A DNA stretch of 30,133 bases from the IMG/VR virus record IMGVR_UViG_3300027563_000029, positions 1-30,133 of that record, one strand, 5' to 3'. The DNA comes from a virus. Taxonomy: Duplodnaviria; Caudoviricetes. Positions 4,513 to 30,133 of the stretch are shown here, one piece after another. Each line of letters starts with the position of its first letter. The first letter of the stretch is position 1. A program made the position numbers and the translations under genes. The notes beneath the pieces are model-generated. The model saw only the letters and a program-made list of their open reading frames with translations, had not been told where the DNA came from and searched no databases.

Positions 4513-5897
4513 TGAATGAAAGAATAGAAACCACAATTTTACGCAATCTTCTATGTAACGAACCGTTCTATAGAAAGGTTGTGCCTTTTGTGAAACCAGA
4601 TTACTTCAATGAAATCCACGAGAAGGTTATCTATGAAGAGGTCTGGAACTTTGCTAGCAACTATGAGATGCTGCCAACAGCAGAAGTGCTTATTATTAAC
4701 TTAGAAAGTAGGAAAGATTTAAATGAGGAAGTATATCAAAACGCAGTTAAAACGATTGCTGCTCTTACTAATGCCCCAGTTGAACACAAGTGGTTGCTTG
4801 ACACCACAGAAAAATGGTGTAAAGATAGAGCCATCTATCTTGCCCTCTTGGAGTCTATCAAAGTCGCAGATGGCGGCAATCCAAAAGTATCAACAGATGC
4901 GATCCCCTCCATACTCCAAGAGGCCCTGGCAGTATCTTTCGACGAACATGTAGGTCACGATTATCTAGAGAATAGTGGAGAGCGTTATGCTTTCTATCAC
5001 CTGACAGAAGAAAAAATTCCATTCCACTTGGAATACTTTAATAAGATTACTAAAGGTGGTCTACCTAACAAGACATTGAATGTTGCTCTTGCTGGCACAG
5101 GTGTGGGTAAGTCACTCTTTATGTGTGACTATGCTGCCAATTGTCTATCGCTTGGTCGCAATGTTCTCTACATAACTATGGAGATGGCAGAAGAAAAGAT
5201 TGCTGAGCGTATTGATGCTAACTTATTTAATGTTAATATCAAAGACCTTGTTGATTTATCTGAATCTGTTTTCAATAGTCGCATCACTGAGTTAAAAAGA
5301 AAAACACAGGGTCGTCTTATTATCAAAGAATACCCAACAGCAGCAGCACACGTAGGTCATTTTAAAGGTCTTCTAAATGAGTTGTCACTGAAGAAGGTAT
5401 TCAAACCAGATATTATCTTTATTGATTATCTGAATATCTGTGCCTCGTCTCGTTACAAAGGCGCTATTGTAAATTCTTATACTTATGTCAAGGCGATTGC
5501 TGAGGAACTCAGAGGATTGGCGGTTGAACACAACCTGCCAATTGTCACTGCAACACAAACTACTCGGTCTGGGTTTGGTAATAGCGATGTCGATATCACT
5601 GATACCAGTGAGTCTTTTGGCTTGCCAGCTACTGCTGACTTTATGTTTGCTCTCATCGCTACAGAGGATTTGGAAAAAGATGGCAGGATAATGGTGAAGC
5701 AGTTGAAGAACAGATATAATGATCCAACCATGTATAAGCGTTTCTTGGTGGGGGTTGACAGAGCACGAATGAAGCTCTATAATGTGGATAACGCTGTTGA
5801 TCTATCTTCTGATAAAGAAGAGGAGTATGACTTTGAAGAGATGGCAGCGAAACAAAGCAAAGATACTAAAAGCAAATTTACCAGTTTTATTTTATGA
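4512..5897 (+). CDS. gp41: Replicative DnaB-like helicase (T4 gp41)
   Basis: LAGTGVGKS, YITMEMAEE, IFIDYLNI, ATQTTR, QLKNRY. Confidence 0.97.
   Translation: MNERIETTILRNLLCNEPFYRKVVPFVKPDYFNEIHEKVIYEEVWNFASNYEMLPTAEVLIINLESRKDLNEEVYQNAVKTIAALTNAPVEHKWLLDTTEKWCKDRAIYLALLESIKVADGGNPKVSTDAIPSILQEALAVSFDEHVGHDYLENSGERYAFYHLTEEKIPFHLEYFNKITKGGLPNKTLNVALAGTGVGKSLFMCDYAANCLSLGRNVLYITMEMAEEKIAERIDANLFNVNIKDLVDLSESVFNSRITELKRKTQGRLIIKEYPTAAAHVGHFKGLLNELSLKKVFKPDIIFIDYLNICASSRYKGAIVNSYTYVKAIAEELRGLAVEHNLPIVTATQTTRSGFGNSDVDITDTSESFGLPATADFMFALIATEDLEKDGRIMVKQLKNRYNDPTMYKRFLVGVDRARMKLYNVDNAVDLSSDKEEEYDFEEMAAKQSKDTKSKFTSFIL
5755..5783 (+). promoter_or_regulatory. Perfect sigma70 promoter inside gp41, likely driving mazG
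   Basis: TTGACA(5755)-17 nt-TATAAT(5778). Confidence 0.8.
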
Positions 5898-6304
5898 CGA
5901 AACAAGTTGACCTAGTTAAGTATACTGAATTTGTGGATAGCACCACTAGCTATCCATCAAAATCAAATGAAGAGTTTATTGCTCGTATTCGTCAATTGAC
6001 TGAGCGTGATGTTCCTATTGCTCGTTTGATGACTGCTGCTGTAGGAATGTCTGCTGAAGCAGGAGAGTTCACTGAGATTGTAAAGAAGATCGTCTTTCAA
6101 GGTAAAGAAATGACTGAAGACAATCGCACTCATCTTATTAAAGAACTTGGAGATGTGTATTGGTATTTCACTCAAGCATTGCTTGGATTGGATGTTGACC
6201 TGAATGAAGTGGTTCTCACTAATGTGATGAAACTCACTGCCCGATATCCAGAAGGTTCTTTTGAGGTCTTGCGATCCGAGAACCGAGTAGAAGGAGATAT
6301 CTAA
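5894..6304 (+). CDS. mazG: MazG-like nucleotide pyrophosphohydrolase
   Basis: GMSAEAGEFTEIVKK...KELGDVYWY; canonical position after gp41. Confidence 0.93.
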   Translation: MTKQVDLVKYTEFVDSTTSYPSKSNEEFIARIRQLTERDVPIARLMTAAVGMSAEAGEFTEIVKKIVFQGKEMTEDNRTHLIKELGDVYWYFTQALLGLDVDLNEVVLTNVMKLTARYPEGSFEVLRSENRVEGDI

Positions 6305-26615: not shown

Positions 26616-26888
26616 ATGATTTCTCAACTTGTTATTTACACCAAAGACCAATGTGAGTATTGTCGTAAACTCAAGGTAATCCTTGATAGTTTCACGGTTA
26701 AATACACACACTACAACTTGGGGCTTGACTTTGACGAGGAAGCATTCTATAATGAGTTTGGTGAAGGCGCAACATTTCCAAGAGTTACCCTTGATGGTCA
26801 CTTGATGGGAGGATGCACTGAGACTATTGAATATCTAACCAGCATTGGTTGTCTACAAGAACAAAAAGATATGGAGTGTATGGTATGA
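26616..26888 (+). CDS. Glutaredoxin
   Basis: IYTK..CEYC, TFPRV, GGC. Confidence 0.92.
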   Translation: MISQLVIYTKDQCEYCRKLKVILDSFTVKYTHYNLGLDFDEEAFYNEFGEGATFPRVTLDGHLMGGCTETIEYLTSIGCLQEQKDMECMV

Positions 26889-27058
26889 AAACAATCACCG
26901 AAGAAACATTTTGCCACGATTTTGATGACATCATGGAGAAAGTTATTACAGACAAAGAAAGTTTTATCATCACAACAGCGAGTGGATCTAATATTATGCT
27001 GATGCCTTATGATTATTATGAGCGAATACAAGGGGAATTAACTCAGTTGGTAGAGTAG
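26885..27058 (+). CDS. Phd/YefM antitoxin-like small protein
   Basis: MKTITEETF..DFDDIMEKV...FIIT....NIMLMPYDYYE matches the Phd/YefM N-domain pattern; ATGA coupling. Confidence 0.65.
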   Translation: MKTITEETFCHDFDDIMEKVITDKESFIITTASGSNIMLMPYDYYERIQGELTQLVE

Positions 27059-27104: not shown

Positions 27105-27112
27105 TTTAATTT

Positions 27113-27200
27113 GCGAGTGAGACTTGGTAGTCAGAGGAGTTTTATAAACTCTTTCCGCCAGATTAGCGGCTTTGATCTGGTTCAAATCCAGACACTCGTA
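27113..27200 (+). tRNA. Non-canonical tRNA with UAU anticodon and long variable arm (nominal Ile)
   Basis: GCGAGTG/CACTCGT acceptor, A73; T arm TCTGG-TTCAAAT-CCAGA; GAGGAGT-TTTATAA-ACTCTTT anticodon arm; CCGC/GCGG V-arm. Confidence 0.8.
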
Positions 27201-27223
27201 TTTGCTATTTGGAAATAGCAAAT
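27200..27223. repeat. Perfect inverted repeat forming the whole inter-tRNA spacer
   Basis: ATTTGCTATTT-GG-AAATAGCAAAT. Confidence 0.8.
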
Positions 27224-28200: not shown

Positions 28201-28512
28201 ATGCAAGACAACGTTAAATACCAATTGGAGAAAGCAGAATCTGCTCTCCGCGAAGCACTCAGTCTGGGTGGTTCTAAAGAAGATACATATCTTCTGAAAC
28301 ATATTGCAGAAACCCTATCCACTATCAATGGTTGGTATGGTGTTTTTGGTCAACAATCTCCACGATATAATGTGAATAAAACCAGAGTAGGAGATTCTAT
28401 TCGATTTGACATGGGTGTTGTTGGTGGGATGGATGAGATGCCAGCATCATATTATGGAGCTGCTGGTGATAGAGTAGTTGGCGGTGCTGGAAATGATGTA
28501 ATTAGTTTTTAG
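28201..28512 (+). CDS. Hypothetical protein
   Basis: 103-aa ORF ending GGAGNDVISF. Confidence 0.75.
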   Translation: MQDNVKYQLEKAESALREALSLGGSKEDTYLLKHIAETLSTINGWYGVFGQQSPRYNVNKTRVGDSIRFDMGVVGGMDEMPASYYGAAGDRVVGGAGNDVISF

Positions 28513-28519
28513 TAACTCA

Positions 28520-28900
28520 TAGTCACGGAGAGACTTTAAAAGAACTGGTGGAGTCAACTTACCCTCTGTATATTATGTTTGGAACTAAGATGAGAATTGT
28601 TGAACAACTCAACAATGGTGATGAAGTAATCACATACTTCTCAGTTGAAATGATTGACAAAAAGTTTTACTACGTGTATAATGATGTCAATCACGGTCCT
28701 TACGAGGACTTTGATGATGCTGTTGACGCAGCATACGAGGATTTAATTCCTCAACCTGTCTCGGAATGACACTAAACGTGCCCTGGTCGGGAACCCCCTC
28801 GATGAGTTTCCAATTTCTCTAAAGAATTGGTGGTGCGGATGGGGTATAACTCCCGCCCAGTTTCTTGCCTCTGGTTAAAGGGCAAGTGGCGAGCCTGAAA
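28520..28900 (+). ncRNA. Large structured RNA, manA-motif-like, interrupted by an ORF
   Basis: Long-range helix 28522-34/28758-70; two tandem H-type pseudoknots; four TAAA-N5-7-TGGY elements; next to tRNAs. The family name is from recall, not a search. Confidence 0.65.
28575..28769 (+). CDS. Small acidic hypothetical protein inside the RNA element
   Basis: ATG at 28575 or 28590; ...HGPYEDFDDAVDAAYE... Confidence 0.65.
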   Translation: MFGTKMRIVEQLNNGDEVITYFSVEMIDKKFYYVYNDVNHGPYEDFDDAVDAAYEDLIPQPVSE

Positions 28901-28901
28901 G

Positions 28902-28920
28902 GAGGAGTGGCGTCCTCTTT
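28902..28920 (+). terminator. Hairpin closing the RNA element
   Basis: GAGGA-GTGGCG-TCCTC-TTT. Confidence 0.4.
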
Positions 28921-28922
28921 AA

Positions 28923-28994
28923 TGGGATGTAGCACAACGGCAGTGCGAAGAGCTGTTAACTCTTAGGTTGCTGGTTCGAATCCAGCCATCCCAG
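28923..28994 (+). tRNA. tRNA-Asn(GUU)
   Basis: TGGGATG/CATCCCA, G73; CT-GTT-AA loop. Confidence 0.94.
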
Positions 28995-29007
28995 TTAGTA
29001 TTATTAC

Positions 29008-29080
29008 AGGAATGTAGCATAGTGGTTAATGCATTCGGCTGATAACCGAAAGATCGTCAGTTCAAATCTGACCATTCCTA
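29008..29080 (+). tRNA. tRNA-Ile(GAU)
   Basis: AGGAATG/CATTCCT, A73; CT-GAT-AA loop. Confidence 0.94.
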
Positions 29081-29093
29081 TCACTCTTGGGCA

Positions 29094-29183
29094 TCAATGT
29101 AGAGTAGATCCCATAGTCATGCTCAAATAAATGGATATGCCGATGGTTGAAAAAAGTATTGTTGCGTTAAGCAAAGTTCGCAT
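29094..29183 (-). CDS. 29-aa hydrophobic peptide
   Basis: MRTLLNATILFSTIGISIYLSMTMGSTLH*; GAGGT just upstream. Confidence 0.45.
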   Translation of the reverse strand: MRTLLNATILFSTIGISIYLSMTMGSTLH

Positions 29184-29310: not shown

Positions 29311-29478
29311 ATGATATTTAATTCAAAGGTATTTAGATTTTATTCTAACAACAACCCAGTATTCATCAGGGTTTACTGACAATTGGTGTGGGGGTGGACA
29401 TCACTCCTACCTCTTGTAATGTAATATACTGGCAGATGTTTTCCCTAAATATACTAGGAAAGACCTTGCTATAAATGG

Positions 29479-30133
29479 ATGTCACGAATTAGAGCAGACG
29501 TAGTAGTAAATAGAGATGCTGACGGTCCAGTTCAGGCTTCTGAAGGACTAGTTATTCCTCAATCAAAACCATTAACAATTGGATCTAACTCTGGTATTTC
29601 TGGTCAATATTTAAAATCAACTGGAACTGGACTGAGTTGGACAACTTTTCCAACGATACCAGCAGCTCAAGTTGCCTCGGATTGGAATGCAAGTACTGGT
29701 ATCTCTGCTATTTTAAACAAACCAACCTTGTTTAGTGGAAGTTACACTGATTTAACTAATAAACCAACAATTCCTGGAGCGTATACATTACCAACCGCAA
29801 CTAGCTCTTCTCTTGGTGGTATTAAAATTGGATCTGGTTTAATAATTGATGGCAGTGGAGTGGTTACGGTTGCTGGTATACAAAATGTTTACGCAGGTGT
29901 CGCTAATTTTCCAGCAGCAAATTTATCTACTGGCATATTTGCTTATGCTACCTCAACTGGGTCAATGTATTACTCCAACGCAGTAAGTTGGACCAGTCAA
30001 AGAATTGTAACTACAAATAGCTCAACAAGTTCTGATTTTGCTACGTTACTTGCGAATACTCAACTCACATATTCTACTAGTGTGGTTGACGTTACTTCTG
30101 GAAACACTGCTTTTAATTTAGCAAGGAAAATTT
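29479..30133 (+). CDS. Tail-fibre-like structural protein (3' truncated)
   Basis: MSRIRAD...GQYLKSTGTGLSW...SDWNA...ILNKP...SGSYTDLTNKPTIP..YTLPTAT..SLGGIKIG; TAAATA at 29446. Confidence 0.85.
   Translation, partial: MSRIRADVVVNRDADGPVQASEGLVIPQSKPLTIGSNSGISGQYLKSTGTGLSWTTFPTIPAAQVASDWNASTGISAILNKPTLFSGSYTDLTNKPTIPGAYTLPTATSSSLGGIKIGSGLIIDGSGVVTVAGIQNVYAGVANFPAANLSTGIFAYATSTGSMYYSNAVSWTSQRIVTTNSSTSSDFATLLANTQLTYSTSVVDVTSGNTAFNLARKI

Follow-up and report, generated by a model that had tools for sequence, protein, structure and literature searches.

The window analyzed here, a viral contig of 30,133 nt (IMG/VR record IMGVR_UViG_3300027563_000029) with an estimated completeness of 16% of the genome, encodes ribonucleotide reductase, MazG and a set of T4-like replication genes, together with ten tRNAs. 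The nearest UvsX to its own is that of Synechococcus phage S-CREM1 (72.6%), and the identical stretch is contained in five freshwater metatranscriptomes, with 72–98% of its words found in each; further runs with small shares of it were left out of the analysis. Toward the 3' end of the window, four RNA modules, each following the general plan of a small fold, UGG and a hairpin, form an array that is interrupted by a small gene and leads into two tRNA genes. The features of the locus are as follows.

28521..28564, + strand: module A (type I), with a 3-4 bp stem, a 7-nt loop, an A-rich linker, a UGG tail and a hairpin
28575..28769, + strand: conserved phage gene of 64 aa, predicted to fold into four beta strands and one helix, with its stop codon inside module B
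28654..28682, + strand: sigma-70-type promoter TTGACA-17-TATAAT, a 12/12 match inside the ORF, with a predicted start near 28689
28758..28803, + strand: module B (type I), with its tail from 28784
28802..28900, + strand: covariance model match to the Rfam wcaG RNA (RF01761), full model, 97.1 bits
28804..28857, + strand: module C (type II, an H-type pseudoknot with UGG tail and hairpin), the first half of wcaG
28858..28897, + strand: module D (type II pseudoknot), the second half of wcaG
28901..28920, + strand: G+C-rich hairpin with a short U-run, which closes the array, is weakly terminator-like and lies clear of the D tail
28923..29080, + strand: phage tRNA-Asn(GTT) and tRNA-Ile(GAT), the context directly 3' of the array

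The terminator scan made no call on the 28901-28920 hairpin, and its loop (28907-28912) repeats the GTGGCG with which the tail of module D begins. A Phd/YefM-like antitoxin ORF is located amid the window tRNAs (26876-27043), with similar genes near the arrays of Sf-FR1 and DSL-LC03, and a MazG-domain gene at 5894-6301 bears on the stringent-response alternative considered below. ARAGORN called a 90-nt tRNA-Ile(TAT) at 27112-27201 that falls below the Rfam gathering score, a type that accounts for 20 of the 157 tRNAs near arrays. Just 5' of a tail-fibre-like gene at 29479 is the sequence TATAAAT (29470-29476), close to the T4 late-promoter consensus.

A preliminary description had interpreted this locus as a manA-like RNA built of repeated modules, two of them pseudoknots in tandem, with a protein-coding gene held in the loop of a long-range helix. 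The sequence motifs that it named were borne out by our analysis. The two GTC-type elements are present at 28522-34 (GTCACGGAGAGAC) and 28758-70 (GTCTCGGAATGAC), and the ORF at 28575-28769 encodes 64 aa from the ATG at 28575 or 59 aa from the ATG at 28590, its TGA falling within the second element. H-type pseudoknots occur at 28804-30 (GAG/CTC with CCAATT/AATTGG) and at 28858-86 (CAG/CTG with CTTGCC/GGCAAG), and TAAA appears four times (28537, 28773, 28820 and 28876), each time followed by TGG (28546, 28784, 28831 and 28887). The repeated-module RNA with tandem pseudoknots is real, as is the gene between modules, which some relatives have at that place and others do not. The family assignment did not hold, since no manA match at E≤10 was found in 28300-29100 and the family is wcaG, scoring well above the gathering cut-off of 42 bits over model positions 1-98. 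The wcaG features are present in the alignment, namely the two covarying stems, GUUUC...AAAG...GUGGYG, the middle hairpin and the pseudoknot, and the wcaG RNA at 28802-28900 corresponds to the third and fourth modules of an array of four, each about 45 nt long and consisting of a fold, UGGN and a hairpin.

The wcaG RNA was described by Weinberg in 2010 (PMC2864571) from cyanophages, where it was scored as a probable cis-regulator and proposed to be a metabolite-binding riboswitch or a leader of exopolysaccharide and high-light genes. Its whole model is matched by modules C and D, so the Rfam model covers two of the four modules, and the RNA in the window leads to tRNAs rather than to a sugar gene. 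In the alignment of supplementary file 5 of the same paper, A- and B-type modules already fill the first slot in some rows; the parts of the paper considered here name neither a modular array nor a tRNA partner, and its Additional files 1, 3 and 7 may mention tandem copies. The portions of PMC9964418, PMC9602691 and PMC4787817 that were covered add no function for wcaG. The family occurs in T4-like cyanophages, and the window has T4-like core genes. The manA RNA (RF01745) is likewise a structured cyanophage RNA beside tRNA genes, described as cage-forming with kissing-loop pentamers in a preprint (bioRxiv 10.64898/2026.07.01.735769), but its model matched neither the window nor the naturally uninterrupted array of S-CREM1. 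That phage carries the same array without an insert, and its true manA (96.6) is separate, about 370 nt downstream.

Relatives of the array were gathered with two DNA patterns and an ORF search (120, 19 and 120 loci), the B and C tails doubling as search patterns, and were parsed with a module caller that gave 0.06 false calls per kb in shuffled sequence. Among 175 type II modules called blind to pairing, with relatedness uncontrolled, P1 was paired in 79% against a shuffled mean of 58% (maximum 62%) and P2 in 87% against 67% (maximum 70%). The type I stem was fully paired in 126 of 140 pairing-blind modules, with compensated variants GTC/GAC (85), GAC/GTC (31) and GTG/CAC (7). Type I modules are probably knotted, because covariation connects two positions of the loop to the linker (loop 2 with -4 and loop 5 with -5); this pattern is not accounted for by a plain H-type helix, and no classical P2 could be fixed from covariation.

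Module order varies among the 123 distinct arrays with at least three modules: BACD in 25, B-insert-ACD in 14, ABCD in 12, BA-insert-CD in 11 and the order of the window, A-insert-BCD, in nine, the last being enriched by the ORF-based search. Most arrays include successive modules that no gene separates. Where inserts occur, 60 of 64 contain an ORF of at least 30 aa, and these fall into nine unrelated clusters. Across the 123 arrays the modules stay intact whatever their order or neighbors, as expected of units acting in trans. A stop codon lies within or just 5' of the module in 161 of 240 first-in-run modules, so the placement seen in the window is the usual layout. Downstream of module D, a terminator-like hairpin was found in 90 of 125 relatives, overlapping the tail in none of the 90, and a TTGAC-like promoter within 110 nt 3' of D in 65 of 125.

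Several further arrangements were observed in the relatives. The closing terminator often holds the −35 box of the next gene in or near its hairpin (for example L004:1650-1700). The arrays of Syn9 and S-RIM2 (L466:1410-1480 and L467:1430-1500) begin with an additional kind of module, which immediately follows a stop codon and ends in TGG, and their orders end in C-A and A-D. A fifth module type is located between C and D in six loci (L015, L024, L036, L037, L101 and L104); its variable tails match Cyanobium tRNAs by just 6-7 nt and are followed by a conserved TTCCGTGTGG-like stretch. In L137 and L138 (about 1690-1730), C has been lost and B is joined to the end of D, an arrangement suggestive of recombination between module motifs. 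The idea of type III antitoxin-like repeats was rejected, as the modules are not near-identical, no such Rfam match was obtained and the tails point to tRNA.

The long-range helix was an artefact of two local hairpins. The elements of A and B fit each other because both are GTC-N7-GAC hairpins, and in the 28 of 46 distinct module pairs whose stems differ, after 73 ambiguous calls had been dropped, the local stems keep 6/6 pairs in 23 while the long-range register reaches at most 4/6 pairs in all 28. The 5' and 3' elements do not covary, the three additional long-range pairs of the preliminary description co-occur in four of the 46 module pairs, and RNAfold gave the long-range pairs a probability of 0.00 and the local pairs about 0.5. 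The suggestion that translation to the stop codon melts the closing helix falls with that helix. Four metatranscriptome contig sets cover A-ORF-B-C-D, one of them stopping at 28892 inside the D tail, and a joint skipping the ORF was absent from all four, contigs being prone to drop rare forms. In addition, the ORF occurs with no module A before it in two loci (L023 and L133), and inserts are also found at joints unable to form the long helix.

The gene itself is a genuine coding sequence with 207 homologues. Across 15 sequences, single-base codon differences were synonymous in 1532 cases and nonsynonymous in 659, and the differences by codon position (1096/718/2562) are those of coding-type divergence. 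The AlphaFold model (pLDDT 87.7) has four strands and one helix. No Pfam or PHROG family matched the protein, and Foldseek returned no match to the fold at E≤0.001 in PDB or BFVD; the best VIA hit (6d7k_H, Z 5.8, rmsd 2.5, 55 aligned) was below the meaningful level, and the Atlas look-alikes are unnamed viral clusters. No SD-like motif was evident by eye 5' of the ORF in the window.

As the promoter scan gave 13 sites against 8.6 in shuffles, the site at 28654-28682 called for a conservation test. It is perfect in 11 of the 15 distinct ORF sequences and matches at least 10 of 12 positions in 14 of them. Synonymous codons are fixed at the promoter, Asp28 being GAC in 12/12 and Tyr35 TAT in 14/15, with the neighboring Tyr mostly TAC. 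The conserved perfect site and the fixed codons together indicate that the ORF DNA is constrained as a promoter, as judged from sequence comparison. The preliminary description had named separate transcription of the 5' half and the pseudoknot part, like a long-range helix that fails to covary, as evidence against its reading, and both point against it: the helix does not covary, and the conserved promoter on the + strand would drive modules B-D apart from A, as an early B-C-D transcript with a predicted start near 28689. The ORF would be a passenger located where two modules join, its DNA also supplying the promoter, and not cargo of an RNA loop.

The module tails are complementary to the mature 3' ends of host-type tRNAs. 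The reference set comprised the 39 tRNAs of a Cyanobium genome, a stand-in for the host set that is without Ala(TGC) and Ile(GAT), and p values were derived from composition-preserving shuffles. The A tail (28546-28557) pairs with the end of tRNA-Ala(GGC) over 8 Watson-Crick positions, or 12 with G-U pairs (p = 0.009). The B tail from 28784 pairs with tRNA-Pro(CGG) over 9 nt (p = 0.013), reaching 11-12 in many relatives, and is not significant when G-U pairs are counted over 11 positions (p = 0.39). The C tail (28831-28844) is the exact 14-nt complement of the tRNA-Leu(CAG) end (p = 0.00015), and the D tail (28887-28897) has 8 contiguous Watson-Crick pairs with Arg-CCG (p = 0.048) and matches both Arg(CCG) and Arg(ACG) at 10 of 11 positions. 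At least 8 tRNA pairs were found in 355 of 465 distinct modules compared with 162 of 5134 other TGG sites, a comparison that is partly circular, the C and B tails being search patterns, and in which many of the 162 sites are missed modules. The longest complement among the 465 modules was 15 of the 16 positions examined.

Position tables, restricted for B and C to loci from other queries, follow the tRNAs in finer detail. Tail position 4 tracks the discriminator, with U for Ala, Pro and Leu (A73) and C for Arg (G73), the tail classes having been defined on the first tail bases. Opposite U70 of Ala, A is found in 91 of 100 tails, and at tRNA G-U pairs the tails are mostly complementary to the 3' strand instead of repeating the 5' strand. 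Among 118 tails of module D, positions 5, 7, 8, 10 and 11 are fixed at 89-99% and positions 6 and 9 are split about evenly; host Arg(CCG) and Arg(ACG), whose ends are near-constant in 29 + 29 family genomes, differ within the first 11 positions only at 6 and 9. The conservation of all tails fades at positions 10-14. CCA is unencoded in 38 of 39 host tRNA genes and encoded in 0/58 Arg genes, so the invariant UGG cannot be DNA homology and points to RNA-RNA pairing, which also ruled out integration-site homology to tRNA genes. tmRNA was rejected as the target of module A: its end pairs over 8 Watson-Crick positions like all Ala acceptors, and tail positions 10-11 (C in 86 and A in 92 of 100) follow Ala(GGC), not tmRNA.

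In co-folding, which ignored tRNA modifications, tertiary structure and EF-Tu, the cognate tRNA ranked first of 39 for all four modules, with energies of -14.7 (A), -7.5 (B), -14.1 (C) and -10.8 kcal/mol (D) against medians of -0.7 to -2.6. Discrimination was weak for B among the Pro isoacceptors (-7.5, -6.9 and -6.8), and D bound His almost as well (-10.5). The tail hairpins partly mask themselves, the GG of UGG being 66-80% paired in A and C in isolated folds. Taken together, these patterns of complementarity make it very probable that the modules bind tRNAs, the predicted mode being UGGN-NCCA pairing with the tail invading the acceptor stem and the first part of the T stem.

The choice of targets follows codon usage. 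We compared 6536 window codons in 41 decoding classes with host frames picked by a GC-by-position rule, with 6-47 frames per set and all sets but the first sharing orthologous loci. Arg-CCG, Pro-CGG and Leu-CAG were the top three of the 41 classes by host/phage ratio (8-27 fold in three GC-rich host sets), and Ala-GGC and Arg-ACG ranked 7th-13th (about 2-2.5 fold). The bias of the five targets fell to 1.0-2.1 fold in loci with less than 45% GC. Gly-CCC and Val-CAC are host-biased by 4-6 fold in the two most GC-rich sets, yet they are not targeted, and phage genes do use GCT and CGT, the codons read by the Ala-GGC and Arg-ACG tRNAs. Four tRNA-rich cyanophages in Table S6 of PMC9964418, as far as that source was covered, carry no Leu-CAG, Pro-CGG, Arg-CCG or Ala-GGC tRNAs, Arg-ACG being the exception among the targeted isoacceptors. 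Against the Leu and Arg tRNAs that phages encode near arrays, the tails pair less well (for Leu, 3-8 contiguous pairs in 17/17 versus 13). Self tRNAs are not fully spared, as the tRNA-Ala encoded in the window pairs with module A over 8 nt (-9.4 kcal/mol) and the common B tail is complementary over 11-12 nt to 5 of 25 phage tRNA-Pro.

The host range points in the same direction. All 50 phage records with wcaG are named Synechococcus phage or Cyanophage, and none has a Prochlorococcus name or host, against 23 Prochlorococcus-named among 473 relatives by UvsX; wcaG was found in 0/3 Prochlorococcus-host phages and 2/2 Synechococcus phages, an absence that rests on few, related and redundant genomes. 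It was also absent from 121 host-family genomes (0/121). In Table S7 of PMC9964418, seen in part, manA belongs mostly to Prochlorococcus phages and wcaG to Synechococcus phages, the two being almost mutually exclusive, with S-CREM1 carrying both. The "Prochlorococcus phage Syn1" of that table has a Synechococcus host.

On balance we favor, by a modest margin over even odds, a reading of the wcaG array as an early antisense trap for host tRNAs. It builds on the observed anatomy, local covariation, shuffled module order, complementarity, codon bias, host range and conserved internal promoter. The array would capture host-type tRNA-Ala(GGC), -Pro(CGG), -Leu(CAG) and -Arg(CCG/ACG) and thereby hold back protein synthesis from GC-rich host genes, with the AT-rich phage relying on other tRNAs. 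By analogy with T-boxes, the duplex may stack on the last helix of the module, favor uncharged tRNA and block its recharging, and early expression from sigma-70-type promoters would give a net shift of ribosomes to phage mRNA. That it is an RNA-only, multi-target anti-tRNA device, capturing tRNAs for host-common, phage-rare codons and shutting down host translation through codon bias with no nuclease, is about an even bet. Titrating abundant tRNAs demands very high RNA levels. Contig depth, a poor measure, gave no sign of extreme abundance: in one run it was 58 over the array, 19.5 upstream and 8.5 downstream, at most about 3 times the depth of upstream genes, and three other runs were flat.

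Known systems share parts of the proposed strategy and pairing. T-even phage infection of Escherichia coli cleaves host tRNA-Leu(CUG), whose codon is host-common and phage-rare. There the T4-like phage, likewise AT-rich, eliminates the tRNA that reads CUG in its host by cutting that single tRNA, as opposed to the predicted antisense binding of four to five tRNAs by an RNA. The modules also resemble the tRNA primer-binding site of retroviruses and retrotransposons, which starts with UGG, is complementary to the 3' end of a host tRNA and opens its acceptor stem. A retroelement primer-binding site is about 18 nt long and complementary to one tRNA 3' end, whereas the modules are shorter (8-14 nt) and address four different tRNAs in tandem. 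No reverse transcriptase was among the 32 window proteins scanned, from a genome that is 16% complete. The priming role of tRNA in retroelements is described in PMC4810235.

Among the alternatives, an unlikely one is a T-box-like sensor, in which uncharged tRNA opens the tail hairpin and switches a downstream small gene or transcript. The UGGN abuts a helix as in all T-boxes, is complementary to NCCA and has an N that tracks the discriminator (PMC7583486, in the part covered), and the tails fold into hairpins that tRNA binding would open. The ORFs directly behind modules in most inserts fit such a sensor, as do the published grading as a probable cis-regulator (PMC2864571, in part) and the absence of an evident SD-like motif 5' of the window ORF. 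In T-boxes the pairing spans 4 nt, and Stem I recognizes the tRNA by its anticodon (PMC7583486, likewise), whereas the modules, about 45 nt long and back to back, pair 8-14 nt into the acceptor stem and have no Stem I or specifier, and no T-box match was obtained at E≤10. Moreover, no terminator-like hairpin overlaps the D tail (0/90), most arrays have module runs with no gene between, the genes behind modules are unrelated, and the array in the window leads into tRNAs.

No more probable is an alarm damper, in which the array shields uncharged host tRNA ends against the stringent response or CCA-end toxins. It shares the tRNA pairing evidence with the trap and fits the MazG domain and Phd-like antitoxin encoded in the window, as well as the Phd-type antitoxins near the arrays of Sf-FR1 and DSL-LC03; the most-used host tRNAs would presumably also be the most often uncharged. 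A damper should, however, cover the phage-drained Lys, Asn, Tyr and Ile tRNAs (host/phage ratio 0.2-0.5), which no common tail matches, and shielding a tRNA end also blocks its use.

The published proposal of a metabolite riboswitch or leader for exopolysaccharide and high-light genes (PMC2864571, in part), with the likeness to tRNA being incidental, appears improbable. Sugar genes do follow the arrays in S-SM2 and DSL-LC03, but four different tails each match a different tRNA, D is followed by a terminator-like hairpin in 90/125 and by a TTGAC-like promoter in 65/125, and tRNA genes follow the array in both the window and S-CREM1. Slightly less probable still is an acceptor mimic, whose tail hairpins would be decoys for synthetases or nucleases: the tail by construction resembles the 5' strand of a tRNA and folds back with its own 3' strand, yet UGGN is no part of a tRNA 5' strand and is nevertheless invariant and tracks the discriminator, the tails are for the most part complementary to the 3' strand at wobble positions, and the mimic hairpins have no CCA end. 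A manA-like scaffold, with the ORF excised or in the loop of a long helix melted by translation, is the least probable reading, for although a pairing of the two elements can be drawn for the window and relatives differ in whether they have the ORF at the joint, everything found on manA matches, long-range covariation, folding, skipping joints (4/4 runs) and the placement of the ORF and other inserts speaks against it.

Since 2010 the wcaG RNA has been listed among orphan riboswitch candidates, and Synechococcus phages carry it widely; in the viral collection, about 1100 stretches are estimated for one 14-mer alone, and about three quarters of the sampled ones are true arrays. The four-module array is an uncatalogued form of this known family with a specific predicted partner. 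A link of wcaG, or of any phage RNA, to host tRNA ends was not found in the literature searched. The partners of the proposed trap are specific and testable, as the exact tRNAs are named. Small modules able to seize a tRNA end of choice would also be useful as tools. If the antisense trap for host tRNAs is true, it would represent a new viral route to the takeover of translation, the negative counterpart of phage-carried tRNAs, and would explain the apparent absence of the motif in phages of the AT-rich Prochlorococcus.
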